A stretch of DNA of 63,938 bases, filler included, from Jimgerdemannia flammicorona (taxonomy: Eukaryota): NCBI GenBank assembly GCA_003990765.1. It is 2 parts of 2 records of this genome, joined end to end, with 100 filler letters (N's around TTAATTAATTAA, not from the genome) between each part and the next. Parts side by side here need not be neighbours in the genome. Positions count along the whole stretch, not along the records: positions 32,043 to 63,938 come from RBNJ01000373.1; 1 more part is not named here. One strand, 5' to 3'. Made by a program: the position numbers and the translations under genes. The notes beneath the pieces were generated by a model. The model saw nothing but the letters and a program-made list of their open reading frames with translations, searched no databases and was not told where the DNA came from. Below are positions 28,461-63,938 of this stretch, one piece after another. Position 1 is the first letter of the stretch. Every line of letters begins with the position of its first letter.

Positions 28461-28659
28461 CAACATGTCATCAAAAGCTGTGCAATTGTCAAACGATCTG
28501 TTTTTTTTTTTTTTTAATGTAACAAAGATGGTAGCAATTCTGCCATTCTGAAGGATCTTAGGATACGAAAAGAGTTTTATTTATTTTACCATAAGCAAGG
28601 TTCTTAGTATGGCCGTTTCATAATGTAATATAATTGTATAACCGTTCCAAGTTTCGACA

Positions 28660-30470: not shown

Positions 30471-30524
30471 ATCTGACGAAGCATTGCGTCACCATGCCGC
30501 CTTCAACTAATTATATATATATAT

Positions 30525-35159: not shown

Positions 35160-35202
35160 TCTTTCTCCTGAATAAGGATCTTCTCTTAAATATCCTTATT
35201 TA

Positions 35203-35499
35203 TTAGTCCAGTGCTGATTCCATAACCTCTATCAGAGAGTCAAAAAGTGATATTTATGGACTGGTATCTTCTTTATATATTTTGATATGATGGTTAAGGG
35301 TTGCTCCATTCATATAGAGCAAGAATCTAATTCTGATCTTGACCAATCAGTTGACAGTTCAAACTTCTCTAGCTTTGAAAGTTTCATGGATAAGTAGTTA
35401 CTAGTGCCATATCTCTTAGAAAATAGTCCAGACAGATTGCCTGCTGGTCACAGGACATGCTGTTATGATTTATGGACTCAGAACCTCATGGGTAATCAT
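35203..35499 (-). pseudogene. Decayed ~98-aa accessory ORF between integrase and the PPT
   Basis: MITHEVLSP*IITACPV...LIEVMESALD*, 99 codons in one frame. All internal stops are explicable as CAA/CAG/CGA to T. Confidence 0.55.
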
Positions 35500-38218: not shown

Positions 38219-38610
38219 TCAAGTAGATCCAAAGCCTTGTTCTCCTCTCTTAGTCTTGATAAGTTCAATGGCTTCAGTGATTTTAGGCTTCTTGACTTTA
38301 TGAATCAGCATCTGGCCAATCCTGTTATACTTCTGAACTTTGAATGGAGTGGTGGGGTTGTGATTTCTGACTATGAGGAAGATCTCACCAGTATAATCAG
38401 AGTCAATTACTCCTCCTGTAACTGAGATTTTGCTTTTGGCCAGACTGCTCCTGGTCTTGATAATTCTGACATAGTTCTCTAGCAATCTAACTTCAAGTTG
38501 AGTGGTGGTCTGTGGTTTGAGGATAGCATTTTGAATGCTGGCAAGATCCATTCCTATGGCTCCTTTAGTCTTGTATTCTGGGATCTTGGCTTTAGAGTGA
38601 AACTTTTTAT
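38219..38610 (-). pseudogene. dut: Retrotransposon-encoded dUTPase domain between protease and RT
   Basis: All five dUTPase motifs: GAIGMDL, TRSSLA, GGVIDSDYTGEI, RIGQMLI, KRGEQGFGST. Confidence 0.93.
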
Positions 38611-42380: not shown

Positions 42381-42976
42381 ATATTTATAAAGCTTGAAAA
42401 TCATTATAATTTAATAAGAATCTTTTATTATTATAGGTATTCTAATTAAATATTTTCCTCTTTAATATATTTACTTTTCTAATTATACTATTTATTCACA
42501 ATAATTCTAGATTACCTTACTTCTATCTTCTGATATATCACAAATTAACTAATAACAAAGATAATAATAATAAGCCTGATATAGTGATACTAATCCATAT
42601 CAAGAGTAAATCTGCAGCTATTCAGGACTACTGATATCTGAGTGATAGACATACTCAGATGATAATAAGAAACAGATTTTTGATAACTGCTATATATTTA
42701 GAAATAAGTGACTTGTACTCAGTATAGACAGCTAATTTAGAGATTCAGATTACTATATAAGAAGAAGAAGTAGATAAATCTAACAGATATAAGTATAAAA
42801 AAGAATAGTTTTGATGAGGGTCTGTCATGTATGGAAAAGGAAAAGGAGGGTTAAAGTATATCTAGTTTGGCAGAGAGAAGAGGAGGCTAGATTAGAAAAA
42901 GAGTAGTATTCTGGACATAGCTTGAGCTGGAGTTAGAGGTGAGTCAGCTGGGTTAACTGATAATAATGTGTAGAAG

Positions 42977-43556
42977 TAGTACTCTGAATGAGTTAATTTG
43001 GATCAGATTTGAATCCCATCTAGATCAACTTGGAAGAAATTTGAATCTCATCTGGATGGAATTTGAATTCCATCTGGATGGATTCATATTAACTATTATT
43101 TTGATTTCCAAATTAGACAATTAAATATTTTCATCAATAACTTAATGAATAATCATTCAAATTAATGATCTTAGTGTCATTTGAAAGCCCTTAATAAGAC
43201 TTATTTAATGATATCAAGAATATTAAAATCAGATCATGTGTTGTTGAGTTATTAAGGAAAATATCATACTTGCTGATTTTGAAAATTATTTGACTTGCCA
43301 ATATTGGAAATTTTGTCAAAAGAATGGTTTCCTTAATAGCTTGGCAATGTGTAATCCAATTTTAACATTCTTGATATCATTAGAAAGGGCTTATTAAGGG
43401 CTTTCCGAAGGCACTATGATTATCAAAATTAGATGATGATTCATCAAGTTATTGATATAAACATTTAATTATCTAATTTTTGAATCAATCCAGATGGGAT
43501 TCAATCTGAATCAATCTGAATCCATTCTGGATTAAATTGACTCATTTGGAGTACTA
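42977..43556. mobile_element. hAT-type foldback MITE (580 bp)
   Basis: TIRs TAGTACTCTGAATGAGTTAATT / AATTGACTCATTTGGAGTACTA. 8-bp TSD TGTAGAAG (42969-42976) / TGTGGAAG (43557-43564). The two arms are complementary over most of the length. Confidence 0.88.
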
Positions 43557-45904
43557 TGTGGAAGGATTATCAAATTTAATATCTATAATGATATCTTCTT
43601 AGTATATTGAAAAGTGTAACTATTAGACATGAAGGTTACTAGTAATAATGAAGATGAGAAAGAGATACTAGATATAATAGATAATTAGAGCCATGAATGA
43701 GAGATAAAAGCTCAAAATTGAGAGAGTATGGTAAGATTTCAGAGATTAGAGAAGGGGAAAAGTAGCAGAAGAGGACAAAGAGATATATAAATGAAATGAG
43801 ACAAGAGATAAAAGAATGATATTTATATAGGTTTTTGTCTGTTTAACATCTAGCTGCAATATTTCAGATAATATATCTCTCTCTTATCTGGTTAAATATA
43901 ATTTTCTCTTTATTTTATTTTATTTTTTATTCTTTTAATGAATTAGTCAGTATAATTATAATTATTAAATTAATAATAATTAATCAAAGTTACTATACCA
44001 TCTTATATATATCTCTCTTATATGTAATGATAATAAAGTAATACAATTTATATATAATGATATTTATACAATATTTATTATATTATTATACTCACAATCT
44101 ACTAGAGTATCAAAAACTAAAGAAAAAGAGGGTATATCAGGAGCTATAGGGAGAGAAAGAAGAGTAAACCCAAAGTCAGTATCAAAGATATAATATATAA
44201 AAAAAGACAGTAAAAGGATAGAATAAAGAATTAAGTAGAAATTGTATCAGCTATTTATTATTATATAAAAGAATAGTCCTAATATACAAAAATGAAGTTC
44301 TAAAAAGAAATAATATACTACAATACAGAGTTAACTATATTAGAAACCAAATGTCACATAAAGAGCTAATCTTAAAGCAAGAATAAAAATCATAAACAAA
44401 TAAATCCAAATCAATATTAAAAATATCTTCAGATCTCAGAGAGATAAGTAAGAGCAAGAGGTAAAGATTAAGTAAAGTGAGATACAGCAAGTCTGAGGTA
44501 AAGCTGAGGGACTGAAGATAGTAGAGAAGAGCAAAGTGAAAACTGAATATCTCAGAGCAAACATAAGATCCCAGAGAGGGTCAGGATTTTTTTAATCTTT
44601 TCTAGCAGATATAAAGAGATCTAAGATAACAAAAATACAAAATGAGAGAAGAAAGATGCAATTTATAATAAAAGGGTATTGGAAAAGAGAGAAAAGTGCA
44701 GAACAGTATTAGAGTATTTTATTTTTTTTCTTTTAATTTCTTTATTAACTAATCTACTATAATAAATATACTATCCTCATACCACACCAGTAGCCCCACC
44801 CTAACTCATTCTACTTTACTCTACCCTAATACACTCTCTCTTTTCTACTTCAACTCTCTTAAAAATAACTATATTATTAATTACTCCAACCTATCTACTA
44901 TTCTTCTCATATATTGTTTCTATCAGATATCTATAGTGACCTCTCTGACAGCATCAGGATATTGTATAGTATAAAGCTCAGCAAGTATAAATGAATAATA
45001 TAATAAGAATCAGGAGAGAGAAGAAGAGAAGACACAAAGTAGATAAGGAGAGAGAGAGGAAAGCATGGGGAGTAGAGGAGAGAGAGAAGAGAGGAGACTA
45101 TAATAGACTATTCTATAAAGGTACGTAATTAACAAATGATAGAAATAGAATATATATAGTAATGGATCACAAAGTTGTCAAAAATCCAAACTACCAATAC
45201 TTAATCAGAATATAGGAATAATATAATACAAGATATCAAACTTTACCTTAAGTATATTTATGAAGAGTACAATGAGAATAATTAGAATAATAGTCAGAGA
45301 ACTATTAAGAATGAGTAAACAATAGTTCAGAAAGAAGAAAGAGAAATAAAAAGATCCAAAAAGAGAATACTAGTCGACTTAAGTACCCAGTAATAGAATA
45401 ATAGAGAGAGTAGATACTATTAAACATATTAGAGATATCATGACCAGAAATAGTGAAAATAATAAAGTTATTAATATAGTAGCAAAAGAAGATATTTCTA
45501 GTCCCAAAGGTGATGACAAGTAGTGAAGAAGGATTATATAGTATATGGAGCTCATGGGCTATGCCAATAAGGTAGTAAGAGTGGGGGTACAATTCATTCT
45601 TATGATAATACCAGAAATCTAATAATAAGAGTCAAGAGCTGACTTAAAAAAGTTTAAGTAGTAAATAAGAAGTATGAGCTCAATAATTGAGATTAAAGAA
45701 ACTGAAGAATCCAAATAGTAAATAATAGGGCTAAGTAAGTATAGGCCATCATCAATCTTTTCAAAATAAATAGTAGTATAGAAGGAAGAAAAATCACCAA
45801 AAGCCAAATAGAAAAAATGAGTAATAGATATAATAGTAGAATACAAAAGGGCAAAGCTCTAAATATTATAAAGAATAGTGAGAAGTACTATTCAAAAGAG
45901 GAAG

Positions 45905-47736
45905 TGTTAAAATATCTTGGTTATAACAACTTGATTATATAGTGGTTATATAGTAGTGTGGTCTGACTATGTCATTATATAAGTATTATCAATACATATA
46001 AAAGTATATAAGTTAGTATTAATAAATAATATCTCTCTTTCTACTCTTTCAAGTATTCTACAACAAAAGGTTATAAGTCTTGCTAGCAAAAGTAGATAAC
46101 AAATATACCTCTCTTATATATATACTATACTATACTATAATATTGATCAATATTAGTAATGCAAGCAGTATGCTAAGTTTAAGTAGTATAAGCAGAATGA
46201 GACCTAAAATGGGTACTAGTAGTATAAGTATATAATAGACACATCTATAGCAGTACTAAAGACAATAAAGAGAATGATTTCTGTCTTTATTGATAAAGAA
46301 TATACCATATAGATATACTATATAAAGAACCCCTTAGAAGAATGTAGTTAGAAGATTATTGGAAGCCACAGATATAAGTAATGATATACAAAGCTGTGAA
46401 GGATCACAGAGCACTAAGAGAGATTATGTTCACTCTTTCAAATATATAAATAAAACTTGTCATCAATTCTATAATAGTGAACAAAGTCTGAGAGATCTTA
46501 TATAATCACTACTAGTAGATATCTATATTAAAAAGATTCTATCTAAAAGTATAACTATTTAATTTCTAAATAAATTTCTAAAAGAGTATCCAGAACTATA
46601 CCAACTATATTAATGATCTGCAAAATCTAGTGAACTCTCTTTCTATGATAACAGATCTCATCAAGGATGAAGACAAGGTTCTGGTTCTTATACATAATAT
46701 TCCCAAGATATTCAATATAGTTATCACTGCTATGAGAGAATCTGACAAACTATCAGACTATAATTATATTTTCATGAGCCTTTTAAATAAGAAATCAAGA
46801 TTGAGTGATAATGATAATGATGATAGTGATGAGAATGCTTTCTATAAAGTACATAGATGAGACAAAGGTAAGCTGAGCAAAGGATGAGACCAAGGCCAGT
46901 AATATGAGAAATTTGATAGTAAATACTTCTATTGTAATAAGTGTAAACATCATGAGTAAGATTGCAACCATAAGAAAAAGAAAAAGAGTGATCAAAGTGA
47001 GCAATATAGAAAATAGTAAGTGAATGTTATAGATAACAACAGTAATAATGAAAATAGTGAAGGTAATAGAGACTTGTTTTTTACAGAAGCAGTAATCTAT
47101 CTATATACAAAAGGAGTTATAGGAATAAAAAATATTGACATAAGCACTAGCATGAATGTAAGCTATATACCAAGTGTTTATACATATAGCAAAGAAGTCT
47201 GGCTTATGGATTCTGGAACAATATTGTCTATAATAGCTTACTATAAGTAGTTCTTTATGTATGAGAAGTTTGAGTACCCCATATCTATCAAACTAGATAA
47301 CAATAATGTTATTTACACTCAAGGCAAAGGAAATGTTGATATATATCTATATAAGAAAGTTAATAAACCCTCAGACATCTTTGTAGACATACTATATACT
47401 CTAGATATTACCAAGAACCTCTTCTCAATAGCTCAGATGATGGCTCAAGGAGATAAAGAAGTAAATATATGACTAAATGGTATAATAATAACCAATCTAA
47501 AGTACAATAAGGAGTTAATATATATATTAAAAAAGAGAAACCTATATGCAATTAATAGTATACTGAGTAGTATATTATTCAAATATTCTACTATAACTGA
47601 AGAGGATCTCTGATATATATAGTATAAATACTTAGAACACATCAGCAAGATGAGCTTGGAATAGATGATAAGGAGTAAATCTATATATGGCTTACCAAAC
47701 TGTATATTACTGAACTTTAGCTTTTGTATTAGATAT
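45905..47736 (+). mobile_element. 5' part of a decayed Ty1/Copia element, interrupted by a Gypsy insertion
   Basis: Short LTR TGTT...AACA (45905-46065) followed by PBS-like GGTTATAAG. Gag-like IKDEDKVLVLIHNIP, knuckle YFYCNKCKHHE*DC, protease WLMDSGT, TQGKGNV...KNLFSIAQM, and a pre-integrase HHCC remnant (YKYLEHISKMSL...YGLP...FCIRY) cut at 47736. Confidence 0.85.
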
Positions 47737-50700
47737 TGTAATGGACCAAAATATACCATCCGAATTATAACTTAGCCAGATGATGTGAACCATCAGCATA
47801 CTTACTCAGCATGATGTGACTTCTAGTATATCATAGCTACCCATGCCTGCCACACTTATAATTAGCCAAGACACCAGATCAGGAGTGTTTATCTGTATCC
47901 TGTGGACACACTTATGTCCTGTGGACATACTTATATCCTGTGGACACACTTATGTCCTGTGGACACACTCATGTCCTGCAGACACACTCATATCCTGTGG
48001 ACACACCTGTACCCAGAAGACACACTCAAACATTACCAGAAGTAGTAAATCTATAGTTAGCTGCATAGCAACCAGATAGCAACCAATCTGTATAAATTAC
48101 CTCAGAGATAAGAGTAAATAAACCTCAGTCCAAAATACAAACACCAAAGAAGCCTCTAAAGATTGAGCATTGGTCTTCTTTCCACTCTGGTCCACTTTCT
48201 GATACAAAGAAGAGTTTGTTATGTTTTTGGTTCACTTGCCAGATAAGCCTGAAGATTTGCCACCTAAGTTCAAGGAGAACTTCGCCACCTTTTGAGTAAT
48301 CTGCCATTTAAGGAATAAGCTGCCATTTCTAAGTTATCTGCATTCCCAGAAAGCCACCTTGCACAAGCCAGTTTCTGATGCAACTTCGCAGTAATCTGTC
48401 ATGCAAACAAAGCCAGTCTTTAACACAACTTTGCCAAGAGACCCTTTCCAAGCTGTCAGTTATATTTCCCAAAGAATTCACTATCTATTGTTCATATCTC
48501 CAGTTGAAGCCAATTCAGGAGAATCTACACCATTGTATTTTCAGAAGAACCTGATTTGGAAGAACTCATGCCATTTGAGTAGTATTCCTAGTTGTCTGAA
48601 TTATCCACACCATCCAGAGTTATTCATTGTTCCCAGTGAGCCCGGCATAGAGAATCTGCCACCAGTATTATTCTCAGTAAGAAGAATCTATGCCATACAA
48701 TTCCCAGTGAGCCAAATCAAGTTATCCATCAGATCATCAGAACATCCTGCATAAGGAACCCACCACACTACACAAAGATCGCCCACTCCCAAGAAGGAGA
48801 ACTGCTAAATTGCCAGACTGTCATGCACAAGATTGTCACACTACACAGAAATCACCTGCTACTCAAGAAGGAAACTGCTTGTACTATATATAAAATCCTA
48901 CTATTCCCAGTTGACTCAAGAAGGAAAGATACAAATCGCCACTATACTTAGAGAACTATCCCAATAAGGAAACCACTCACAGATATCCAGCTTGACTATT
49001 ATACCACTAAACACCAAGGACCTCAGGAATCTTAGAACATTTTGTTGCTTTTTGACATAGTAACTGAGGGCTCAAGCCAAACTACATCAATCCCCAACCT
49101 TGTAATTTGCCTCCATTGAGCCAGGCACATTATATCTGGGGGCTCAACTGGGAAGATTTTTTTTTTAAAATCAATGTGACATTTCAGCTCACAAGAACCC
49201 ACAGTCAAACTGGATACATTTGATACAACACCAACCTCTGCTACTACAAGAGAACCAGTTATCACCAGCATCTGGACAGGAAGAGAAGTAATCACTTCAA
49301 GACTTGCCAATTACCCAATATCAGAAGGATCCCAACTAGAGCCAGAAGGCAGTACAGCTTGAAATCTCCAACCAGATCAACCAGACAATACAGGCAGCCC
49401 TGCTGGAGATTTTGGAGAACTTGCACAAGAACTAGAAGATCTTATTACATGGACCCAATACTTTACAGCCAGACACCCCACACCAGTCTCACCAATCTTG
49501 TCAATAGAACCCCTACCACAACCCCTTGCAGAACCAGAAGTAGCTCCTACAAGAATACCTAGGCCTATTCCACTCCATCCAAGGACCAGAACACCATCTT
49601 CAAGATACCCAAGCACCCCCATCTCCAGTGACAGTTCAGAAAGTGAATCAGAACCGGAATCAGAAGAAAGTGATGATGAAATGGCCACCTCATTGCCAAC
49701 TTTTGCAGGATATCCAGAAGAAGACCTCAGAGAATTTCTTAATGGGATTGAAGGAATCGTAGTCTTGAGAAATCTCTCAGATGAAAGAAAAATTGCCATC
49801 TACAAAGCTCAGCTCAGGGAACCAGCCAGAGGAATTTTCTATTAAACAGCAAACAACTGAGATTCAGAATTAGCAAGACAGATACAAGCAGCAATATCTG
49901 ATGAGCTAGAATATGAGGCCATGGTCCACTGGCTCATTGAAAAATATGCAGGAAATGAAACCTGCTACAAGGCTCAAGAATCTATCGTAGGATGAAGATG
50001 AATCTTGGAGAATCACCTAGAGCCGTCTTCATAAGAATCCAGAAGAGAATGTATATTGCTGGGTTCAATACCACCAACCAAGACATCATAGGTCCAATGA
50101 TCTTTATGAATAGATTTCCACCAAATATTGCCCAGCATATCTGTACTCTAGGTATCAGAAGATCCAAAGAGCAAGTAGATGCAGCCTAAGAATTCTTTGA
50201 TATCAGACAAGGAACTACCTGGAGTGACCATGGTAAGAAAGATAATAAGGAAGAAATCCTAGTCAAAGCTCTACAAAGACTCCTTCAAGGACAAGAGAAA
50301 TCCAAAGAAAGAAGACCAGCTAAGAAAGGAAAGAAGAATAGAAGCAAAATCTAAGACCTCAGCTCCAAGTTGGATCAATTGGTTGGACAGATTGAAAAAC
50401 TCACCATATATAAAAATCGAAGCTACTAAGATAACAGAGGATACCCACCACAGAGGAGCCAAGGTTATCCATCAAGAGATAACAGGAACTACCAGCAAGA
50501 GGAAAGAAGATACTCTGCCTGAAATAGAGCCCAAGTCCAATGCTTCTACTGTGAATAATTTGGACACTATACTACTGAATGTGACAACAAAAGAAGTGAC
50601 TGAAGGGACTCAGAACTACCAAACTGAAGGAATGACACTCAGTACAAGAAGACTGAAGCCCATCCTATTAAGGATTTCAAAGAGACAAGCAACAGTGAAG

Positions 50701-52860
50701 ACTACAGTGACCTATACTTATACTCTACCAAAGTCACTACCTAAAAGACAGTCTATTCAGCAGAGAAAAGGAAGAGACTTATTGGAAGGCCATCCAGGAA
50801 TATCAGCAGAAGAATCATTTAAGAAGAAGATGAAGAACATGAAGAAGAATAAGTAGAAATACCTCCCCAGACTCTCTCACCTTTTGTTCTCAAGATAAAT
50901 GAGTTGCTACAAGAGGATGGAGAAATAGAACAAAAAGAATGAGAACCCACTGCCCCAAAGCCCAAGAAGAAGTATACTCTGAAGACTATGCCCAGAGACA
51001 TCTATAATGAAGTCTGACAAAAAATTCAAGAAGCCAAGATAGAAGTCCCTCTTCTGCAGTTCCTGCAACTGATACCAGCTGGAGTCTGAAATAAATTGCT
51101 ATAAACTACTAGGTCTAGCACTGGCTGAGTTCCAATCCCACAATAAGAGCCAGCTTTCATTTCTATCTAAGTTGCAGAAAGACTTGTCAGCACCTACCTA
51201 CATGGAGATATTAGAGAACAAAAGGTGAAAATCCTCATAGATACAAGAGCAGCTGTCTGTATCATTGTTAAACAATTTCTGGATACCCTCTAATGGCCCA
51301 TTGATGGCCCATTGATGGACCATCCAATCTCAGCATCATAGTAACAGATGGAGCCTAAACTCAACCCCTTGGTGAAGTATGAAACATCACCATTTCTCTT
51401 GGACACATTCTGTTCTCTATCCTGAAAGCTGTTATCACTGAAGCTATCACTTATAGTATAATCCTAGACATCAACTGGATGAAGAAAATGAATGCAGTTG
51501 TTGATATCAGTCAATAAGTACTCAAGTTTGATTACTGAGGCAAGAAGTACAGAGTTAAGATGACCAGCTATGAGCAATTAAAGAAGAAGAAGAAGATCAC
51601 TATCTAGGAGAAATACACCAGTAGTGAAGAATCTACTACAGAAGAGAAGGAGGAATCTTAAGATAGAAATGATCCCAGACTCAATCCTCAGATCAATCTA
51701 GTAGACAACAGACCAGAGGATAATGTATAGGCCAAGAACACTAACTCCATCACCATTGGAGCCATTGCAGGAGAAATCAAAGGATGCTCCACCTGCCTCA
51801 AAAGACATAAGTGTCTCAAGCACTTCTCCAAGATCATTGGGATAAGGAATTCGCCTGGCATAGCCTGCCCAGAGTGCAGAAAGAAGAAGAAGAAATACAG
51901 ACATGTTCCAGAAACACCTGCAGCCAAAGCTGCAGAAGTATAGGCAATTTGGGGTCAAGAATCATCTGAGTAAGAAGAAGTTTCTGACCAAGAAGTTCCT
52001 GAACAAGAAGCACCTGAAGAAGAAGAGGTCTCTAAACTCATTCTCTGGAATGACCCTCACTGGATACCATCTGAGAATAATGACCTTTGGATTATGGAAG
52101 AAGGACCCAGCACAATCTCCATTATTCCCAAGAAAGAAACATACCAAGAAAGAGCTTTTCAGCTAGGAAGATGTCTACACCAAATGATCTTCTACTCTCC
52201 CTAAGACTACTGCTACTAATGTCATCTACAGGATCAATAGGAAAGACAGAGGCCCCAAAGACCAGAACCCCCAAATATAGTTGTATAGTTAACTACTTTT
52301 TTAGAAGTTACCACCAGGTTGTAAAGCTGATTCAGAGGACAAGGTCTCTTTACCTGAACATTAATATACTGTCTATCCACTCTTCCTACAACTTATGATG
52401 AAGATGGATACTGATTCCCAAGACAATAAGAGGTCAACAATCAAGAATAGCATTTCTGAGCAATGGAATATTGCAATTATAGAAGACATCCAGACTGCTG
52501 AGACTGCAAGCATCAGAAGATTCACCTCAGTCATGATATTGCAATTCACACTTTAAAGAGAGGAGAAAACAGAGATCAGATCCAAAAAAGCCAAACCAAG
52601 AAGCCAGGAAGAAGAATCCTCAAGATCTATGATTTAGGAGAAGACATCCTAGCCCTTATCAGACATGCAATCCACTAAGGATGGGCAGAAGATGCCACCA
52701 ACTTCATAGAAGCCCTAGACCCCACAGGAAGAAGAGAAATTAATTATCTCTAAGATCCCTCTACTGTAGCTAGATGGCTAAACCTCAACCTTAGAGCCTA
52801 GAGGCTCTCTGCTAGTAGAGCTTCAGTACTAGGACAGCCTGAACTTAGTAAGAATATTGC

Positions 52861-53270
52861 CCAGTATGCTCTGCTGCATCTCAAGGCCAAACCCTCAACC
52901 AAAGTACACCCAGAAGATATAGGATATGATCTTTACAGTCTGGAGGATGAATCCATAAAGCCTGGAAAAACATTTATGATCAGAACTGGACTAGCTATAT
53001 AGTCACTCTAAGGAACTTACATTCAACTGACCTCAAGGTCTGGACTTATCAGACAAGGAATAACTATAGAAGGAGGAACCATTGACCTAGGATATATAGC
53101 TGAAATCAAGGTCATCCTACACAATAGAAGTTCAGAATAATACTGAATCATCAGAGGACAGAAGATTACCCAAGCAGTCTTTATGAAGGTTAAGACTCCA
53201 CAATTATAAAATATCTCTGAACTGACTGAAGGAATGAGACAAGCTAATGGATTTAGAAGTTCAGATAAGA
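52861..53270 (+). pseudogene. dut: dUTPase domain of Gypsy family 2
   Basis: HPEDIGYDL, IRTGLAI, TSRSGL, GGTIDLGYIAEIKV, GQKITQAVF, RQANGFRSS, with internal stops. Confidence 0.9.
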
Positions 53271-56229
53271 AGAAAGTATATCTCCTTTAAGTCAACCACC
53301 TTAAGAGGAATATTCCTCAGCAAGTATACTACCAATCAGTCAAACTGCACAAGAATCTCATCCTGGAGGCTGGAGAACAAACCACCTTCGAAATCTTTGC
53401 ACCACTTGACCCCAGAAATCTTTTCTTTGAACCCAATGAAGATATCTCACATCTGGACATAGAAGGACACACATTCTCTGACAAGATAAATCCAGTATAT
53501 TCCCAAGCAACCAACCAAAGTTGAGAAACCATCATCTTGCCAAAAGAAAGCATCATAGAATATCTGGTGCCTTTTCTCAACCAAACCTATAGAGAAGTTT
53601 ATGAACTAAACTTATCAGAAAATGGCAAAAGATCCCAGAAGAAAGGAAAGGCCCCTCTGTGACCCAGGAGACAGTGAAGCCTTCTACCAATATTGGAGAA
53701 GAATTGACACCCCAGTAATGACAACAACTAGTAGAACTCCTCAACAAATACCAAGATATCTTCACTACTGATTATGGCAACCTGCTATATAATCCGTTAT
53801 ATCACTATAGCATAAATATAGGAAATATAACACTCATTTGGCAGAAACCTTACAGAATACCCCATTACTTAAAAACATTCAAAAAGGAGCACATTCAAGA
53901 AATATTAGATAATAGAGTCATCCAACTGTCTACCAGCCCCTGGGCCAGCTCTATACTTATTATATCAAAGAAAGGAGGATGGAGACTTTGTATAGACTAC
54001 AGGAAACTCAATTCAGTCACTGAAAAAGATGCCTATCCTTTGCCAAGAATTGATGACCTTTTGGATCAGTTACAAGATGCCAGATACTTCAGCAGTATGG
54101 ATCTTTTCACAGAATTCCATGAGATTCCCATAAACCCTAAGGACATTCAGAAAACAGTCTTTCTTGCACTAGAAAAACTGTTTGAATATCTCTGAATACC
54201 CTTTAGACTTAGCAATACACCTCTTATCTTCCAGAGGATGATGAATTTACTCTATACCCCCTTGATCCACTACTGCCTGATTGTATATATGGATGATTCC
54301 AATATCTATTTAGCAAATTTTAAATAATATCTATACTATTTAGAGGAATTCTTCAATCTCACCTACAAGAACCACCTGAGACTCAATGCAAAAAAATGCT
54401 ACTTTAAGAAACAGAAACTTGAATTCCTTGGATTCATAGTTTTAAAAGAAGGAACCCATACATATCTCAAGAAAATCAAGGAGATCAACAATTGGCCAGT
54501 ATCCAAGACCCCAAGGGAAACATTATCATTCTTGATACTAGTATCTTACTATAGAATATTTATCAAGGACTTTGCTCAAATCTCTGCCCTAATTCAGATC
54601 TTTCTCAAGAAAGGAGTACCTTACAAATAGACAGAATCACAAAAGAAAGCCTTCAAAGAACTTAAGAACTGTATGACCACAGCATCAATCCTTGTGTACC
54701 CCAATCTACAGAAGCCATTCATCTTATATACAGATATTTCCAAAGATGGCCTAGGAGCAGTTCTTGCCTAAGAAGGACCTGACCAATAGTATCATATGAT
54801 AGCTTATGCAAACCAAGCTACCAATCAGCAGTAGATGAACTATGGTAGCACCAAACTAGAATACCTTACAGTTATATGAGTGGTCACTCTGTTCAAGCAT
54901 TACCTCATTGGAAAAAGATTTACCTTAATCACAGACCATACAGCCCTCAAATGGCTATTCAACTATAAGGAACCTATCAGAATCCTAGTCTGCTAGATCC
55001 TTATCCTTTAAGATTACAAAATCACCATCATCCACAAAGCAGGGAAAGCCCATAACAATGTTGATATACTTTTCTGCCAGCTCCAACGAACCAGAAGAAG
55101 AGTGTCCCAAGAAACTACACCCTAAAGGACACTCCTCAGACCATCAAGGCACAAGAAGATCTTATTCAAAAAAAATACCAGAAAGCTTACTAAGAATAAG
55201 AAAACATAGAAGAAAAGTTGTGAACAATATACCAACATTGGCCCAATCTTAGAACACAAGTCTGGGACATCCTCAAGAAATGTGACATCTACCAGAAATA
55301 CCAAGGAAGGAAGAACTACCAAGTACCACTGCAACCAATCATACCACCAGACAACATCTTTTGGAGATAGAAAGTAGATATAATTGGACCCTTATCAGTT
55401 ATACTAAGAAGAAACAAATACATCCTTAATATCTGACAAAGTGGCCCAAGGCTTTCCCAATAGAAATCACAAATGCCTTAACTATTGTAGGCCTTCTCTA
55501 TAGACTCACCCTCAGATATAGACACTCAGAAGAACTTATCTCTGACTGAGGTACAGAATTCATCAATAACATAATTACCAGTTATACCTAAATTCACAAG
55601 ATTCACCTCAAATAGACTATATTATACCACTCTTAGACCAATGGTATGATAGAAAGAATGAGCCAGACCATTAAGAAAGAACTTGCCCAAGTCAATCCTA
55701 TTAACTGGGACCTCTGCTTACCTGAGATCTTATGGGAAATTCAGAACACCCCTATAGCCTCTATCAAACAAAAGTCATTTGAAATGATGTTTACTAAGAG
55801 AACTAGAACTACTGATCATAAGGATCTCAGGAACCTCCTCAAGAAGGCAGAATAGTTATATAATCAAGCCCAAGCTCAGATTATCAAAGCTCAAGAAAGA
55901 CAAAAGAAGTACTATAACCAGAAACAGAAGAATTAGGAGATCAAGATTAGAGATCAAGTACTAGTGTAGAGAAGTATGATTGAACTGAATTTTGCCACCA
56001 AACTAGAGCCCAAATGGGAAGGATCTTATCTTGTACACAATATCAAAGAAACCAGTATCTATTTAAGAAGTATAGATGGACAGACCCTCAGGACACTAGT
56101 ATATATCAATCATCTCAAGATATATCTATCTCCATACCATAAACTAGAGAGTTGACAACTGCCTTCAGACTCTTGTCCTTAGCTCATTTCAATCACTACT
56201 AGTTCCCCTACCCTAATTCCAAGAAGTCA

Positions 56230-56590
56230 ATGGAAATGCTATCCAGAAAATTCAGATTCATTAAGAGAATCTTGTCCTGACCAGATGATTGTTACAGGTC
56301 CATCAACTTCAGGCCCATTATGCAATAGAGAATAATTACAGAACCTCCTAGTTCTGGAACAAATATATGTATATTAGAAACACCACAGAACTATCAAGAA
56401 GAGATGTCACCACTACAGATAGGCTCTACACTCTTTATAAATGAAACCTCACAGCTCTGATACAAGCACAATTCTCCTGGTATAATGTATGAGGAATGAA
56501 GCTAGCCACCTACCTAAGCATCATCAATACTGTCAAAATCCTGTTCCCAGAAGAATAAAAAGAACTTGGAATAGAGCAGACATAGTACAG
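56230..56590 (+). pseudogene. Decayed accessory ORF between integrase and the PPT of family 2
   Basis: One frame reads GNAIQKIQIH*ENLVLTR*LLQVHQL...TTDRLYTLYK*NLTALIQAQFSWYNV*GMKLATYLSII, with stops explicable by single transitions. Confidence 0.45.
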
Positions 56591-58628
56591 ATGACAAAGA
56601 TGATAGAATAGGTATTGATACAGAAGATGCTTATCCATACTGGGATGATGACTAAAGGATAGTCTGAGGACAGACCATCCTTTAGTGGGGGCTGATGTGA
56701 CAAACCAAAATGTACCACCTAAATTATAACTTAGACAGATGACATGAGCAATTAGTAACTTAGCCAGATGACTTGAACACATAGCATAGTAACCAGACAC
56801 AGTAACCATTGCTGTGGAAAACTATATAAATAGCCAGACTACCAGATAAGGTATATTTATACAGGACCTATATACCTGTGCTGGATCTGCACAACTTGCC
56901 ATAAGTAGCAAATCTATAGTTAGCCATATAGTAACCAGATAGCAACAACAATGTATAAAATACCCCAGAGACAAGAGTGAATAAACCTCAGTCCAAATTG
57001 AAGTACAAACCAAAGAAGCCTCTAAAGATTGAGCATTGGTCTCCTTATTCCCACTTTGGTCTACTTTCTGATAGAAGAGTCTGAATTGAATCCAAAGTAA
57101 AAGTCAAGTCTGCATACTACACTTCAAGAGGAACTCTACAGCCACTGCTTGGAGATTGTGAGCAAAGCATTCCTTTCCACTCCAGTCCACTTTCCAATAC
57201 AAAGAGTTTGTTATGTTTTTGGTTTGCTTGCCAGATAAGCCTGAAGAATCTGAGTTTGCCACCTAAGTTCAAGGAAGAACTTCACCACCTTTTGAGTAAT
57301 CTGCCACTTAAGGAATAAGCTGCCATTTCCAAGTTATCCGCATTCCCAGAGAGCCCTTAAGGAACCTTACCACAAGCCAGTCTCTTGATGCAACTTCGCA
57401 GTGATCTGTTCCTGCAAACAAAGCCAGTCTTTGATATAACTTGCCAAGAACCCGAGTTATTATTCCCAGAAGCCCGCCAATTCAGGAAGAATCCACAACA
57501 TCCAAGTTATCCACGACATCTGAGATTATCTGAGCTATCCGAGTTATTGAATTATCTGTCTTCCATGCTATCTGAGTTATTATTTTGTTCCCAGTGAGCC
57601 CGATTCAGAGAATCTGCTGCCAGCATAATTCCCAGTGAGCCGATTCAGAAGAATCCACGCCATCTGCTATTCCCAGAAGAACTGCTGCCTTTGAAGAGCT
57701 TGGTATCAGTCAGAATGTGCAGAATTTAAAGTATGAAGATAAGAAAGAAGTCATCTCTTTGATTACAAAAACTCTTCTGATCTGAAAATAACAACCTACT
57801 CTTGACCAGATAGTTTTGAGATTCAGTATTGGTAACTTCATCAATAAGTTCATCTATTAAACTCAAATATTCTAACCAATTGTACAATTTTTTTACTCTT
57901 TAGTTCTCTATAGTGAGAAAGATGTCACTAATACAATTAATTGGCCATCATGCTCAGCTTCTGGAATAATGATTGGCATTGTATTCAGCTTTTCAAGAAT
58001 GTTCTATACAGATGATCTACCAATGATTCTTAACTTCTTAGTTGGTTGGTACAGTTCTGGAGTAGTATATAAAATATTCTAATTCAAAAATGATTGCAGC
58101 TTAATTCACCATTTTGGAACAACTAGCTCATATTGGCCAGTGGCTTATACCTGTAAACTAATGATGGAAATTAGAGATAACTATGAAATAGAAAAATAGC
58201 TTACAGATAGCTTAGTTGCTACATTTAATAAGAGAAGTATCATGACACTTCTCTGATTCTTTATATTTCTCCTATGTAATTCTCTATCTTTGCTCCTGTG
58301 ATTTTTTACATCTTGTATTTTCTGTTTCTATAATTTTTTAAATCTTGAATTTTCTGCTACTGCAATTTTTTACATCTTACATTTTCTGCTTCTGCAATTT
58401 TTTACATCCTGTGTTTTTTTTTACCTCTCTGCTTATACAGTTGTAGTATATAGTCCTTTTCTTCTACCTCTGCAATTTTTTACATCTTGACTGATGTGAT
58501 TCTTTTGCATCTCTGTCTTACAGTTCTTTGTATCTCTACTATACAATTTTGCACTTTTTGTATCTACATTCATTTGTACCTCCTAAGCTATTATTTGATC
58601 ATGAACTGATAATTATAATAATATATAT

Positions 58629-61600
58629 TGTGACAAACCAAGACGTACTACCCGAATCATATCTTTACCAGATGACGCGAACAAGATGACGTGAACACTC
58701 AGCTTAGTAACCAGCAACCACTTGCTGTGGAAACTGTATAAATAGCCAGACATACCAGAAAGGGTCTGTTTATCTGTACAGACTCTGTACACCGTACAGA
58801 CTCTGTATACTGTACAGGTCCTATACACCGTACAGACTCTGTACACCTGCCATAAGTAGCAGATCTATAGTTAGCCACATAGTAACCAGATAGCAACCAA
58901 CTTGTATAAATTACCCCAGTGGCGAGAGTGAATAAAACCTCAGTCCGAATTGAAGTGCAAACCAAAGAAGCCTCTAAAGATTGAGCAATTGGTCCCCTTA
59001 TTCCCACTCCAGTCCACTTTCTGATACAAAGCCTGAAGATTTGCCGCCTAAGTTCAAGGAGAACTTCGCCGCCTTTTGAAGAGAAACCCACTGCTTAAGG
59101 AATAAGCCGCACTATGTTTTGGTTCGCTTGCCAGATAAGCCTGAAGATTTCCGCCTTTTCCGCTGCCTAAAGGAAAGCCGCCTTGCTCAAGCCAGTTTCT
59201 GACGCAACTTCGCAGTGATTCGTCACGCAAACGAAGCCAGTCTTTGACATAACTTTGCCAAGAGACCCTTTCCCAAAAAAGCCGCCATCCGGTTTCCCAG
59301 TTGAAGCCGCCATTCTCAAGTTACCCATATTCCCAGTTAAAGCCGCTGATTCAGGAAGAATCCGCGCCATCCGAGTTATTTCCCAGAAGCCCGCCGATTC
59401 AGGAGAATCCGTGCCATCCACCGTTTTCGAGTTATCCGCATTCCCAGAAAACCCACGCCATCCGAGTAGTATTCCCAGTTAAAGCCGAAACCGCGACATC
59501 TAAGTTATTCGTCATTCCCAGTGAGCCCAGTATAGAAGAATCCGCGCCATACGATTCCCAGTGAGCCAAATCGAGCTATCTGCCAGAGATCGCATACTTT
59601 TGGAGATTGTTGCGCTATACAAGAAATCGTCTGCCACCCAAGAAGGAGAACCGCTAAATTACCAGACCGTCATGCACAGAGATCGTCGCGCTACACAGAG
59701 ATCGTCACGCAGAAATCACATACTTTTGGAAACCCGTCGCACTACACAAAGATCGCTGCACTACACGAAGATCGCCCGCCACCCAAGAAGGAGAACCGTT
59801 AAATTGCCAGACCGTCACGCACAAGGAGATCGTCGCGCTACACAGAAATTGTGCCATTCCCAGTTGACCCAAGAAGGAAACCCATTCACACAAATCGCCG
59901 CTACACCTAGAGAACAGTCCCAATAAGGAAACCACTCGCACAGTATCCAGATCTTGACTATTATACCACTAAACACCAAGAACATTTTGTTGCTTTTAAC
60001 AAAGTAACTGGGGGCTCAAGCCAAACTACATCAACCCCCAATCTTGTAATTTGCCTCCATTAAGCCAGCACATTACATTTGGGGGCTCAACTGGGAAGAT
60101 TTCAAAATCGACGTGACTTTTCAGCTCACAAGAACCCACAGTCAAACTGGATACATTTGATACAACACCAACCTCTGCTACTACAGGAGAACCAGTCATC
60201 ACTAGCATTTGGACAGGAAGAGAAGTAATTACTTCAAGCCTTGCCAACTATCCAGCATCAGATGGATCTCAACCAGAAGCAGGAGGCAGTACAGCCCGAA
60301 ATCCTCAACCAGATCAACCAGATCAACCAGACAATACAGGCAGCCCTGCTGGAGATTTTGGAGAACTTGCACAAGAACTAGAAGACTTTATTACCCGGAC
60401 CCAACACCCCACACCAGTCCCACCAATTTCACCAATAGAACCCCTACCACAACCTCTTGCAGAACCAGAAGTAGCTCCTACAAGGATACCTAGACCTACT
60501 CCACCTCATCCAAGGACCAGAACACCATCTTCAAGATACCCAAGCACCCTGGTCTCTAGTGACAGTTCAGAAAGTGAATCAGAATCAGAATCCGAATTTG
60601 AACCAGAATCAGAAGAAAGTGACAAAGAAATGGCCACCTCATTGCCAATCTTTGCAGGATACCCAGAGGAAGACCCAAGAGAATTCCTTGATGGAATCGA
60701 AGGAATCACAGCCCTGAGGAATCTCTCAGACGAAAGGAAAATCGCCATCTACAAAGCTCAGCTCAGAGAACCAGCCAGAGGGATTTTCCATCGAACAGCA
60801 AACAACCCAGATTCCGAACTAGCAAGACAGATATAAGCAGCAGTCTCCTATGAGCTAGAATATCAGGCCATAGTCTACTGGCTCATAAAAAAGTATGCAG
60901 GAAATGAAACCCGCTACAAGGCCCAGGAATCCATCATGGGAATGAAGATGAATCTTGGAGAATCACCCAGAGCCTTCTTTACAAGAATCCAGAAGAGGAT
61001 GCACTCTGCTGGGTTCAATGCCACCAACCAAGACATCATAGGTCCAATGACCTTCATGAATGGGATTCCTCTGAATATTGCCCAGCATGTCCACAACCTA
61101 GGCATCAGAAGGTCTGAAGAGCAAGTAGATGCAGCCCAAGAATTCTTTGATGTCAGGCAAGGAACTACCTGGAGTGACCATGACAAGAAGAAAGATAAAG
61201 AAGATATCCTGGTCAAAGCCCTACAAGGACTCCTTCAAGGACAAGAAAGGTCTGAAGAAAGAAGGCCAGCCAAGGAAGAAAAGAAAGACAGAAGTGAAAT
61301 TCAAGACCTCAGCTCCAAGTTAGACCGATTGGTTGGGCAGATTGAAAAACTCACCACACGCGAAAATCGGGATTACCAAAACAACAGAGGATACCCATCA
61401 CAGAGGAGCCAAGGTTATCCACCAAGGGATAACAGGAATTACCAGCAAGAAGAAAGAAGGTACCCTGCCCAAGACAGAGCCCAAGTCCAATGCTTCCACT
61501 GTGGACAATTCAGACACTATGCCACTGAATGTGACAACAAAAGAAGTGACCGAAGGGACTCAGAACCACCAAACCGAAGGAATGACACCCAGTACAAGAA

Positions 61601-63938
61601 GACTGAAGCCCATCCTGTTGAAGATTTCGAGGAAGCAAGCAACAGTGAAGACTACAGTGACCTAGACTTGTATCCCACCAAGGTTACTACCCAAAAGACA
61701 GTCTACCCAGCAGAAAAAAGAAAGAGACCTGTGGGAAGACCATCCAGGAACATCAGCAGAAGAATTATTCAAGAGGAAGATGAGGAACATGAGGAGGAAC
61801 AAGTTGAAACACCCCCCCGAACTCCCTCACCTTTTGTGCCTGAGACAAATGAGTTGCCACCAGAAGATGAAGAAATGGAACAAGAAGAATGGGAACCTGT
61901 TGCTCCAAAACCTAAAAAGAAGTACACCCCGAAGACCATGCCTAGGGATATTTACAATGAAGCCTGGCAGAAGATTCAAGAAGCCAAGATGGAAGTTCCT
62001 CTCCTGCAGTTCTTGCAATTGACACCAGCTGGAGTCCGAAACAAATTGCTGAGAACCACCAGGTCTAGCACTGGGCGAGTTCCAATCCCACAGCAAGAAC
62101 CAGCCTCCATCCCTGTCCAAGCAGCTGAAAGACATGTCAGTACCTACTTACATGGAGACATTGGAGTACAAAAAGCAAAAATCCTCATAGATACAGGAGC
62201 AGCTGTCTGTGTCATTGCCAAACGATTCCTGGACACCCTCCAATGGCCCATTGATGGACCATCCAACCTCAGCATCATAGTAGCAGATGGAGCCCGAACT
62301 CAACCTCTTGGAGAAGTACGAAATATCACCATCTCCCTTGGACACATTCAGTTCTCCATCCCCAAAGCTGTTGTCACCGAAGCTGTCACCTATGATATGA
62401 TTCTTGGCACCAACTGGATGAAGGAAATGAATGCAGTTGTTGATATTGGCCAACAAGTACTCAAGTTTGACTACCAAGGCAAGAAGTATAGAGTTAAGGT
62501 GACCAGCTATGAGCAATCGAAGAAGAAGAAGAAGGTCACCATTCAAGAAGAGTATGCCAGCAGTGAGGAGTCTACTACAGAAGAAGAAGAAGAATCTGAA
62601 GATGGAAATGATCCCAGACTCAATCCACGAATTAACCTGGTGGATGACAGACCAGAAGACAATGTGTGGGCCAAGAACACTATCCCTATTACCATTGGAG
62701 CCATCGCAGGAGAAGCCAAAGGATGCCCCACATGCCTCAAGAGACACAAGTGTCCCGAGCACTCCTCCAAGATCATGGGAAAGAGGAAATCGCCTGGTGC
62801 AGCTTGCCCAGAATGTAGAAGAAGAAGAAAAAATGCAGACATATTCCAGAAACACCTGCGACCAAAGCTGCAGAAGTACAAGTAATTTGGGGTCAAGAAT
62901 CATCTGAGGAAGAAGAAACTTCTGACCAAGAAGTTCCTGAACAAGAAACACCTAATGAAGAAGAAGTCCCCAAACTCATCCCCTGGGATGACCCCCACTG
63001 GACACCACCTGAAGACAATGACCCCTGGAATACAGAGGAAGGACCCAGTACCATCACCATTATCCTCAAGAAAGAAACCCACCAAGAGAAAGCTTTTTGG
63101 CTAGGAAGATGTCCACATCAAATGGTCTTCCACTCTCCCCGAGACTACTGCTATCAGTGTCATCTGTTGGACCAACAAGAAAGACAGAGGCCCCAGAGGC
63201 CAGAACCCCCAACTACTCTTGCACAGTCTACTACCTTCCAAGAAGTCACCACAAGGTTACAAAGTTGATTTAGGGGACAAGGCTTCTTCACCCGAACAGA
63301 AATATACCCCTTGTCTACCCTTCCACCAACCTATGACCAAGATGGGTACCGATTCCCCAGACAACAAGAGATAAACAGCCGGGAACATCATTTCGGAGCA
63401 ATGGGATATTGCAACCATGGGAGACACCCTGATTGCCGAGACTGCAGACATCAGAAGATTCACCTCAGTCATGATGTTGCAGTACATACCCTGAAGAAAG
63501 GAGATAACCGAAGCCAGATCCGAAAAAGCCAGATTCGAAAAAGCCAGACCAAGAAGCCTGGAAAAAGAATTCTCAAGATCTACGATTTGGGAGAAGACAT
63601 CCTAGCTCTTATCAGACATGCAACCTGCCAAGGATGGGCAGAAGATGCCACCAACTTCATGGAAGCCCTTGATCCTACAGGAAGGAGGGGAATCAATTAC
63701 CTCCGAGACCCCTCTACTGGAGCCAGATGGCCACACCTCAACCTTAGAGCTTGGAGGCTTTCTGCTAGTGGAGCTTCAGCCTTAGGAAAGCCAGAACTCA
63801 GCAAAGATATTGCGCAGTATGCCCTGCTGCACCCCAAGGCCAAACCCCCGACCAAAGCCCACCCAGAGGATGTAGGATATGATCTTCACAGCCTGGAGGA
63901 TGAAAATATCAAGCCAGGAAAAACCTTCATGGTCAGAA
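58629..63938 (+). mobile_element. Less decayed Ty3/Gypsy family 2 element running off the window end
   Basis: LTR 58629-60077 (TG...CA) preceded by ATAT; PBS TGGGGGCTCAACTGGGA at 60080; colinear with 47737-52990 throughout. Confidence 0.95.
60111..63938 (+). pseudogene. gag-protease-Cys/His insert-dUTPase polyprotein (partial, disabled)
   Basis: Capsid-like LPIFAGYPEEDPREFL, knuckle CFHCGQFRHYATEC, protease ILIDTGAAV...ILGTNWM, dUTPase start YALLHPKAKPPTKAHPEDVGYDL (~63818). Lesions: start ACG TGA (ATG in the sister copy), TAA at 60834, a short frameshifting deletion near 62820, TGA at ~63265. Confidence 0.9.

Follow-up and report, generated by a model that had tools for sequence, protein, structure and literature searches.

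Transposon relics and genes in the window

The window, a 63,938-nucleotide stretch made of two parts joined end to end, contains a genic block and the remains of several transposons, among them one family-1 element and two family-2 copies that we term copy a and copy b:

1..4000, no strand: second CpG-free block; CpG o/e 0.00-0.10, GC down to 0.15, CpT/ApG o/e up to 1.84
4001..31800, no strand: genic block used as internal control; CpG o/e ~1.0, paralogous segments with a ts/tv of 2.09
33611..35159, minus strand: low-coordinate LTR of family 1, on the 3' side when read in element orientation; no CpG remaining
35160..40835, minus strand: family-1 internal region, protease-dUTPase-RT-RNaseH-integrase; degenerate, many stops
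40836..42380, minus strand: family-1 LTR at the high-coordinate end
42381..47736, no strand: AT-rich CpG-free relics; GC 0.26-0.32
47737..48853, plus strand: 5' LTR of family-2 Ty3/gypsy-type copy a; LTR start motif at 47737, start exact, end approximate
48854..56695, plus strand: internal region of copy a (gag, protease, RT), with RVT_1 at 53722-54192; CpG o/e 0.00-0.12, heavily mutated
56696..57676, plus strand: 3' LTR of copy a; end approximate
58629..59760, plus strand: 5' LTR of copy b, with an internal tandem duplication of ~100 nt; end approximate
59761..63938, plus strand: internal region of copy b, truncated by the end of the window; CpG o/e 0.17-0.22

The 5' LTR of copy a is homologous to sequence from 56696 and from 58629. 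The gag-protease frame of copy b (60117-62885) is open save for one stop, a TAA at 60834 that is CAA in copy a. Domains recognized in family 1 are a dUTPase (38222-38692), RVT_1 (37114-37542) and rve (36041-36379). Among the relics at 42381..47736 lies a Ty1/copia remnant, with gag at 46582-46857 and Pol_BBD at 47251-47469, which reaches the LTR start of copy a. Bearing on MITEs, for which CAGT-to-TAGT ends had been noted, we found a single foldback element (42977-43556), with no second copy within the window; its arms align poorly and differ by 38 transitions and 29 transversions. Purine/pyrimidine-collapsed self-BLAST yielded no further copies from the AT-rich relics, and Rfam and tRNA scans returned no match.

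CpG depletion is confined to transposons

Genes (4400-31800) have a CpG o/e of 1.03, against 0.00-0.04 for transposons, and the borders of the depletion are sharp, at ~4.0 and 32.0 kb. The block at 1..4000 appears to be the end state of the same decay. This confinement of CpG depletion to transposons, with genes unaffected, resembles the decay of CG-methylated transposons. We considered an explanation by CG methylation only, in which the excess of non-CpG C-to-T changes would come from a different neutral spectrum of heterochromatic DNA free of constraint, such as AT-biased mutation with context-dependent repair, and not from any dedicated non-CG methylation or mutagenesis; we judge it unlikely. 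In line with it, no other effect in our data comes near CpG loss in strength, and host intergenic stretches are AT-rich too (GC 0.30-0.36 at 4001-5000, 22001-23000 and 31001-32000). However, relic GC falls to 0.15-0.27, below that of this intergenic DNA, where CpG o/e still stands at about 1.0-1.35. Canonical RIP is marked by a high TpA/ApT, a low (CpA+TpG)/(ApC+GpT) and a positive composite index. The relics have lost CpA and ApC to a similar extent (0.67 and 0.66), and among 1-kb windows the composite RIP index exceeds zero in 7 of 35 from transposons and 1 of 28 from the genic block.

Transitions are in excess and directional

A sequence-only reading of this DNA had described the differences between the family-2 copies as dominated by transitions, and our alignment bears this out. 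Across 4124 ungapped columns (copy a, 48766-52985, versus copy b, 59759-63938; 84.9% identity), we counted 537 transitions and 86 transversions, and an example quoted in that reading is present at homologous positions, as TTCCATCGAAC at 60786 in copy b and TTCTATTAAAC at 49837 in copy a. The family-1 LTRs (33611-35159 versus 40836-42380), for which the same pattern had been claimed, indeed differ by 200 transitions and 25 transversions in 1540 columns (85.4% identity). Ten host gene paralog pairs, our control, gave 745 transitions and 357 transversions, a ratio of 2.09; transposons, at 6-8, reach three to four times that value, which counts against the CG-only explanation. Transversion divergence in the two transposon alignments is 1.6-2.1%, indicating that the insertions are old.

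The changes have a direction, and the gradation proposed between the two copies is evident: copy a has T/A where copy b has C/G at 384 sites (on the family-2 coding strand, 221 C>T and 163 G>A), against 153 sites of the opposite kind. Within the gag-protease frame of copy b, copy a has 27 premature stops and copy b has one. The two were also called sister copies; they are homologues, but not simple sisters, since they differ by 165 synonymous and 173 non-synonymous codon differences. These numbers suggest that a share of the a-b divergence arose before insertion, under selection. The pairwise comparisons are polarised only in part.

For polarisation we used P0006, an uninterrupted family-1 relative that served as protein reference (76.7% identity over 506 aa, without frameshift). 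Relative to P0006, 79 of 99 single-base changes in the family-1 coding region are C>T or G>A (26 and 53, respectively), and the rest are 10 reverse transitions and 10 transversions. The LTR triple likewise has 21 C>T or G>A changes, with 7 in reverse. A metagenome scan with P0006 recovered relatives that are only 38-42% identical, and no uninterrupted family-1 DNA copy was found in it. Sequencing-run contigs of diverged relatives, aligned to 47737-63938 at 80% likeness, are short and cover LTR parts only, too little for polarising mutations, and their differences are mostly transitions; the two runs share 0.38 and 0.19 of words in one genic stretch. Our evidence comes from this one window, with two transposon families and a single protein reference.

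Both DNA strands are affected, as seen from the 114 purine-type and 86 pyrimidine-type transitions between the family-1 LTRs, and per-context rates are equal on the two strands. These data bear on whether an AID/APOBEC-like deaminase edits retrotransposon cDNA during reverse transcription, with the element dUTPase as a counter-measure, which we consider highly improbable. The family-1 dUTPase does sit between protease and RT, and the non-synonymous changes on the family-1 coding strand favor G>A over C>T (53 versus 26). On the family-2 coding strand, however, C>T outnumbers G>A. Moreover, the LTRs of one insertion are identical at integration, and those of family 1 are now separated by 200 transitions that involve both strands, a divergence that largely refutes cDNA editing. 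CpG saturation is not known as an APOBEC trait. We rejected APOBEC-type cDNA editing on the basis of the LTR-LTR divergence and the strand symmetry.

CpA and CpC are mutated alike and CpT is largely spared

We determined the changed fraction of C columns by context. In family 2 it is 0.84 for CpG, 0.25 for CpA, 0.28 for CpC and 0.18 for CpT. The surplus in copy a relative to copy b is confined to CpG (40 versus 3), CpA (121 versus 32) and CpC (89 versus 26), whereas CpT is symmetric (53 versus 53). Between the family-1 LTRs, all 24 C columns that precede a G/A column are changed, and the fractions elsewhere are 0.448 for CpA, 0.463 for CpC and 0.112 for CpT (CpA versus CpT, p = 3.9e-15; CpC versus CpT, p = 2.7e-10; CpA versus CpC, p = 0.89). 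The family-1 coding region polarised with P0006 gives a like pattern, with 12/12 CG, 37/135 CA, 22/101 CC and 8/142 CT changed. In family 1, CpA and CpC are therefore mutated about 4-6 times as often as CpT. CpA and CpC also do not differ in family 2 (p = 0.38) or in the polarised family-1 set (p = 0.36), although in the small LTR triple CpC (3/29) lies below CpA (8/35). Calculated per lineage, the CpA/CpC/CpT rates are ~0.29/0.30/0.06 in the LTRs and 0.27/0.22/0.056 in the internal region of family 1, so that the two parts are mutated to a like degree. The earlier proposal that CpG and CpA/TpG are the dominant contexts stands insofar as both are affected; in three data sets, however, CpA is not above CpC, while it is clearly above CpT.

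The 5- to 6-fold contrast in family 1 also bears on the CG-only explanation, in that host paralogs show no such contrast (CpA 0.18, CpT 0.17), a control that is imperfect because it is mostly coding and under selection. In favor of that explanation, cytosines at CpT still outpace A:T sites, with 8/142 CpT changed against 10 reverse transitions in total.

Flanking bases modulate the rate. It is higher with a pyrimidine at +2 (0.393 versus 0.226, p = 9e-10), an effect present in both families, and with A or C at -1 (0.355 versus 0.244, p = 5e-5). For cytosines in family 2 that are followed by a G or G/A column, the changed counts by preceding base are TCG 34/58, CCG 27/32, ACG 11/16 and GCG 10/18. 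Plant CHG methylation affects CAG and CTG alike; here both are among the least mutated contexts (0.21 and 0.145), and we rejected plant-like CHG methylation for this reason.

The signature differs from that of RIP

Our data establish a real C-to-T process that is directed at transposons and spares neighboring genes. They do not match the classical CpA-specific signature of RIP, which the sequence-only reading had invoked: CpA equals CpC, the composite index is mostly negative, and C>T and G>A are interleaved at random along the sequence (z ~0 in 4/4 lineages). Single rounds of RIP give strand-coherent tracts, and such tracts are absent here.

A RIP-like process could still be imagined in which homology triggers enzymatic hypermutation at a particular life-cycle stage, through a RID/Masc1-like or other enzyme with the preference CpG > CpA = CpC >> CpT; we regard this as unlikely. 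The window shares with canonical RIP (in Pezizomycotina such as Neurospora and Leptosphaeria, RID-dependent) C:G-to-T:A change on both strands limited to repeated elements, massive inactivation by stop codons, and AT-rich relic blocks that adjoin GC-normal genes, and the restriction of the copy a surplus to particular contexts also fits. Outside Dikarya, RIP-index signals and RID-architecture methyltransferases are described in Entomophthorales, whose genomes are enriched in dUTPase and aspartic-protease retroelement domains, both also present in the window (bioRxiv 10.1101/2023.09.13.557621). As described in the literature, however, RIP prefers CpA, or CpT or CpG in some species (PMC4352252; PMC3318451), and the preference seen here, with CpG saturated and CpT spared, differs from every described RIP. 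The 5' LTR of copy b, its most repeated part, also retains CpG (o/e 1.02 in 59001-60000, versus ~0.2 in the interior). Canonical RIP, which is premeiotic and involves a RID/Masc1-type gene, targets any duplication of a few hundred bp, including genes and tandem repeats. Host duplicates of 0.4-1.4 kb have normal CpG and a ts/tv of 2.09, which selection, age or sub-threshold divergence could explain, and an in-frame 36-nt tandem array (8530-10440, 1.9 kb) keeps its CpG, although selection or sub-threshold divergence could mask earlier action there.

Slow, single-site decay is favored over a homology-triggered burst by four observations: the random order of C>T and G>A, the CpG retained in host duplicates and the 36-nt tandem repeats, the equal mutation of LTRs and internal region, and the transversion divergence of 1.6-2.1%. 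With a transposon-specific, directional C-to-T process beyond CpG decay, the broader suggestion of repeat mutagenesis or strong non-CG methylation stays viable, but not in the form of CpA RIP.

A proposed model of transposon-targeted cytosine methylation

In the explanation we favor, to which we would give roughly an even chance, cytosine methylation would be targeted to transposons, densely at CG plus C[A/C], and deamination would follow. The data themselves show the direction of change, its restriction to transposons, its context, its presence on both strands and the absence of strand-coherent tracts; both methylation as the cause and the responsible enzyme are what we infer from the mutation pattern. 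In this model, decay would be chromosomal, post-integration and transposon-restricted, acting on both DNA strands. The host would place 5-methylcytosine on transposons and not on genes, nearly completely at CG and substantially at non-CG cytosines before A or C, with [A/C]-C-[A/C]-[C/T] as the best non-CG context and C before T left mostly without methylation. As 5mC deaminates spontaneously to T, changes would then accumulate site by site, such that old insertions would lose all CpG first and then most CpA and CpC cytosines. The end state would be DNA of 15-30% GC with its remaining C mostly in CpT/TpC, and stop codons would fill the frames through CAA>TAA, CGA>TGA and TGG>TGA/TAG. Copy a would be older, or longer exposed, than copy b.

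Several fungi show parts of this pattern. Tuber melanosporum transposons are described as having a CpG plus secondary CpA C-to-T signature, and those of Microbotryum, Puccinia and Melampsora a CpG-only signature (Amselem et al. 2015, PMC4352252). As in these fungi, transposon copies in the window have a Ti/Tv that exceeds 2, and the signature that dominates is CpG, there ascribed to methylation and deamination; unlike in them, and unlike in CG-only 5mC decay, which lacks the excess at CpA and CpC, CpC is as strong as CpA. PMC4352252 lists no CpC signature, and the term CpC has 0 occurrences in its text. The TpCpG specificity of Pucciniomycotina (PMC3318451) is missing in the window, where TCG is changed less often than CCG. 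In Zymoseptoria tritici, C-to-T mutation of transposons depends on Dim2 and occurs in ordinary growth, meiosis not being needed (PMC8016269). The window shares the C-to-T decay of transposons, which is methyltransferase-dependent in that species, but Dim2 is described there as affecting CA and not CG, whereas the window has saturated CG and equal rates at CC and CA.

Neurospora DIM-2, the sole fungal non-CG methyltransferase that PMC13297926 characterizes, prefers CpT, the opposite bias, and non-CG methylation in CG-preferring Basidiomycota is given there as low (0.38-2.47%). If the host is fungal, the enzyme specificity required would thus match none described in that text. We raise, as a doubtful proposal, that an undescribed host system modifies or mutates transposon C at CG plus [A/C]-C-[A/C]-[C/T], skipping CpT, and may act outside Pezizomycotina; a zygomycete-grade fungus and a protist are examples of hosts in which such a system might occur. 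As the cited texts describe them, RIP signatures, DIM-2 (CpT) and Zymoseptoria Dim2 (CA) do not include this specificity, and a limited literature search found no paper that describes CpC as co-dominant while CpT is spared.

Implications and the host

Context signatures are a means of recognizing RIP and methylation-driven decay in genomes without experiments. Standard RIP indices mostly fail here, while aligned copies show strong, transposon-limited C-to-T change under the rule CpA = CpC >> CpT atop total CpG loss. In Entomophthorales, whose genomes are Ty3-rich, RIP outside Dikarya has been suggested (Stajich et al., bioRxiv 10.1101/2023.09.13.557621), with a composite dinucleotide index in 1-kb windows as the described measure, in contrast to the aligned copies and sequence context used here. 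If the host lies outside Pezizomycotina, our alignment-based signature would offer a testable criterion for "RIP outside Dikarya", so far argued from dinucleotide indices, and would indicate which sequence preference to expect of the enzyme sought. Should the host be an ordinary methylating fungus, the window would represent a well-documented, though unsurprising, case of transposon decay.

In Pfam searches with 118 genic ORFs, an SH3 domain was the sole result apart from weak matches. Two homologues were found for the host ORF at 18372-20147 and one for the copy b gag-protease ORF. The top clusters for a kinase family in Atlas are from Ascomycota and Basidiomycota, the other entries being unrelated. 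Cluster look-ups gave only distant relatives (~30% identity), from a dinoflagellate and a sea urchin, and a homology search gave one from Orpinomyces. Two putative introns look fungal-like, with GTAAGT and CTAAC motifs. We take these observations together as a lead only.

Transposons in the window are depleted in CpG

Transposons occupy 32-64 kb, the right-hand half of the window, as well as the initial 4 kb; the block at 4-32 kb is genic. We annotated the following elements:

33611-35159 and 40836-42380, minus strand: LTRs (~1.55 kb each) of family 1, a complete but degenerate LTR retrotransposon with the pol domain order protease-dUTPase-RT-RNaseH-integrase
38222-38692, minus strand: family-1 dUTPase (Pfam E=9e-23), encoded between the protease and RT domains
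Between family 1 and family 2: AT-rich relics, including a copia remnant
46582-47469: Ty1/copia remnant with gag and Pol beta-barrel domains, stopping a little short of 47737, where the LTR of copy a starts
47737 onward: family-2 copy a, Ty3/gypsy-type; 5' LTR from 47737, internal region up to 56695, 3' LTR from 56696
53722-54192: RT remnant of copy a
58629 onward: family-2 copy b; 5' LTR from 58629, gag and aspartic-protease frame, truncated by the window end

Family 2 thus has two copies in the window, and the copia remnant ending just before 47737 suggests that it is nested in an older copia element. A 580-bp MITE-like foldback (42977-43556; termini TAGTACTC..., subterminal short repeats) occurs once in the window. 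At the gene-transposon border (31843-32075), a run of ~100 T is followed by N stretches at 31943-31986 and 31999-32042 around TTAATTAATTAA, and then by poly-A; jointly these parts form a near-perfect palindrome, perhaps an artefact of assembly or masking, perhaps a genuine foldback.

The ratio of observed to expected CpG is 1.03 over 4400-31800. It drops to 0.00-0.04 in family 1, the relics and copy a, with copy b at 0.39; viewed at 1-kb resolution, the change is sudden, at ~4.0 kb and ~32.0 kb. Within copy b, the ratio is 1.02 in the 5' LTR region (59001-60000) and 0.17-0.22 in the interior (60001-63938); either this LTR escapes the process, or family-2 coding sequence has long been CpG-poor.

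Differences between copies are mostly transitions, with net C-to-T change

Copies a and b are 84.9% identical over 4124 ungapped columns and differ by 537 transitions and 86 transversions; the family-1 LTR pair (85.4% identity, 1540 columns) differs by 200 transitions and 25 transversions. This agrees with the sequence-only reading, which had described inter-copy differences as mostly transitions and whose quoted sequence example is real, lying at homologous positions of both copies. As an internal control of similar divergence we used 10 paralogous host segment pairs (78-87% identity), which show 745 transitions and 357 transversions. Their ratio of 2.09 is far below that of the transposons, making the excess three- to four-fold and transposon-specific.

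Four lines of evidence show that the net change in the transposons is C-to-T. First, copy a has T or A against C or G in copy b at 384 sites, and the reverse holds at 153, which is too asymmetric for any reversible process at equilibrium. Second, scored in the gag-protease frame of copy b, copy a carries 27 premature stops, mostly CAA>TAA, CGA>TGA and TGG>TGA/TAG, whereas copy b carries 1, a TAA where copy a retains CAA. The grading between sister copies that had been proposed from sequence is thus evident in both sites and stops. Third, we polarised changes in family-1 pol with P0006, an uninterrupted 514-aa relative encoded on a 3.4-kb metagenome contig, which aligns without stop or frameshift at 76.7% identity over 506 residues. 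A single unique base change accounts for 99 of the 113 codons that differ; these changes comprise 53 G>A and 26 C>T, 8 A>G and 2 T>C, plus 10 transversions. Because P0006 is intact on an environmental contig, a less decayed family-1 copy exists somewhere in the environment. Fourth, an alignment of three family-2 LTRs with copy b as outgroup gave 21 C>T or G>A changes and 7 reverse changes in 325 usable columns.

CpA and CpC are lost equally and CpT is largely spared

We tabulated the fraction of C columns changed by following base.

Fraction of C columns changed in each context (P0006-polarised rates are events/(events + survivors) at non-synonymous sites)
Comparison: CpG; CpA; CpC; CpT
Family 2, copies a and b: 0.84; 0.25; 0.28; 0.18
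Family-1 LTR pair: zero CpG remaining; 0.448; 0.463; 0.112
Family-1 coding, P0006-polarised: 12/12; 37/135 (0.27); 22/101 (0.22); 8/142 (0.056)
LTR triple (small, deviating data set): 8/28; 8/35; 3/29; 2/50
Host paralogs: 0.29; 0.18; 0.235; 0.17

Hits at both CpG and CpA, as claimed from sequence, do occur, but CpA is not above CpC in family 2 (p=0.38), the family-1 LTRs (p=0.89) or family-1 coding sequence (p=0.36). CpA does exceed CpT, with p=0.0016, p=3.9e-15 and p=1e-6, respectively, and so does CpC in family 2 (p=1.4e-4) and in family-1 coding sequence (p=2.6e-4). All 24 of 24 family-1 LTR C columns preceding a G/A column are changed. Copy a exceeds copy b only at CpA (121 vs 32), CpC (89 vs 26) and CpG (40 vs 3); at CpT the copies are exactly even (53 vs 53). 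Per-lineage loss in the family-1 LTRs, calculated as f/(2-f), is ~0.29 at CpA, ~0.30 at CpC and ~0.06 at CpT, close to the coding-region rates, so the whole family-1 element is evenly affected.

Flanking bases have further effects. Where the cytosine precedes A or C, the rate is 0.393 with a pyrimidine at +2 and 0.226 otherwise (p=9e-10; significant per family), and A or C at -1 lifts the rate from 0.244 to 0.355 (p=5e-5). Context rates are equal on both strands. The tabulation of transposon alignments revealed neither TpCpG specificity nor a CHG-type pattern (CAG 0.21, CTG 0.145).

In the host paralogs the CpG effect is mild and there is no CpA-CpT contrast. One reading of the transposon pattern, CG methylation combined with a neutral spectrum specific to heterochromatin, we consider unlikely.

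The oldest relics (GC 0.15-0.27) are depleted in CpA (0.67), ApC (0.66) and CpC (0.78) and enriched in CpT/ApG (1.66), the expected outcome of prolonged loss of all cytosines save those before T. Since CpA and ApC fall together, classical RIP indices barely react: the composite index exceeds 0 in 7 of 35 transposon windows, against 1 of 28 among genic ones. The RIP-like CpA label given earlier does not hold; the non-CpG part is real, but unlike canonical RIP it is not CpA-specific. We consider it unlikely that an enzymatic process resembling RIP, but with unusual context preference, is at work.

The process acts on integrated transposon DNA

The two LTRs of a retrotransposon are identical at insertion. 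Those of the single family-1 insertion are now 200 transitions apart, with both strands affected, so editing while the RNA is reverse-transcribed is excluded as the main cause and cDNA editing is a highly improbable explanation; the process works on integrated DNA. Its targets appear to be transposons, not duplications as such: the host paralogs are untouched, and so is an in-frame array of 36-nt units spanning 1.9 kb, although selection, or divergence below a recognition threshold, could mask past action. Along each copy, C>T and G>A changes succeed one another in random order (runs-test z -0.24 to 0.39, 4 lineages), and divergence at transversions, 1.6-2.1%, shows that the insertions have long been resident.

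We therefore favour, with confidence evenly balanced, slow deamination of 5-methylcytosine. The host would methylate transposons densely at CG and substantially at C[A/C], and the methylated cytosines would gradually decay to T. On this reading CG methylation would be almost complete in the elements and absent from genes, while methylation of CA and CC would exceed that of CT several-fold and peak in [A/C]C[A/C][C/T]. The weak point of this methylation reading is that the two fungal non-CG enzymes compared here differ in preference. Neurospora DIM-2 prefers CpT according to a review (PMC13297926), whereas the transposons here largely spare CpT. Zymoseptoria Dim2 drives mutation at CA, not CG (PMC8016269); here CpG is lost and CpC equals CpA.

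Other fungal signatures also differ. For ten fungi, Amselem et al, 2015 (PMC4352252) tabulate signatures at CpA, CpT and CpG, with CpG and secondary CpA in Tuber and CpG only in three basidiomycetes; CpC, hit here as strongly as CpA, goes unmentioned in that text. The TpCpG specificity described for Pucciniomycotina by Horns et al, 2012 (PMC3318451) is absent from the window transposons. For Entomophthorales, Stajich et al. (bioRxiv 10.1101/2023.09.13.557621) describe RIP-index signals, methyltransferases of RID architecture, and genomes enriched in retroelement domains of the dUTPase and aspartic-protease types; the latter resemble the elements here, which is only a lead.

The transposon-restricted C-to-T decay is real and strong. 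Its CpG part is ordinary, and the rule CpA = CpC >> CpT is an unusual variant, with no report found in the limited literature searched, that merits a genome-wide test.

Host repeats and gene content

Tandem arrays within ORFs (24-nt units at 7182-7646, 36-nt units at 8530-10440) encode 8- and 12-residue protein repeats and are not CpG-depleted although they are repeats. Triplicate host segments lie at 4723-5997, 13705-14889 and 28751-30107, and also at 10843-12692, 19710-22103 and 26794-28454. They share 70-87% identity, include an SH3-domain exon (21780-22145), and look like a lineage-specific multigene family. Few named relatives of the host and transposon proteins, almost none, exist in databases; a 591-aa ORF (18372-20147) lacks Pfam domains, and just two homologues match it. 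Short putative introns (GTAAGT/CTAAC) and a kinase with fungal clusters closest to it in the Atlas give weak hints on the taxon.
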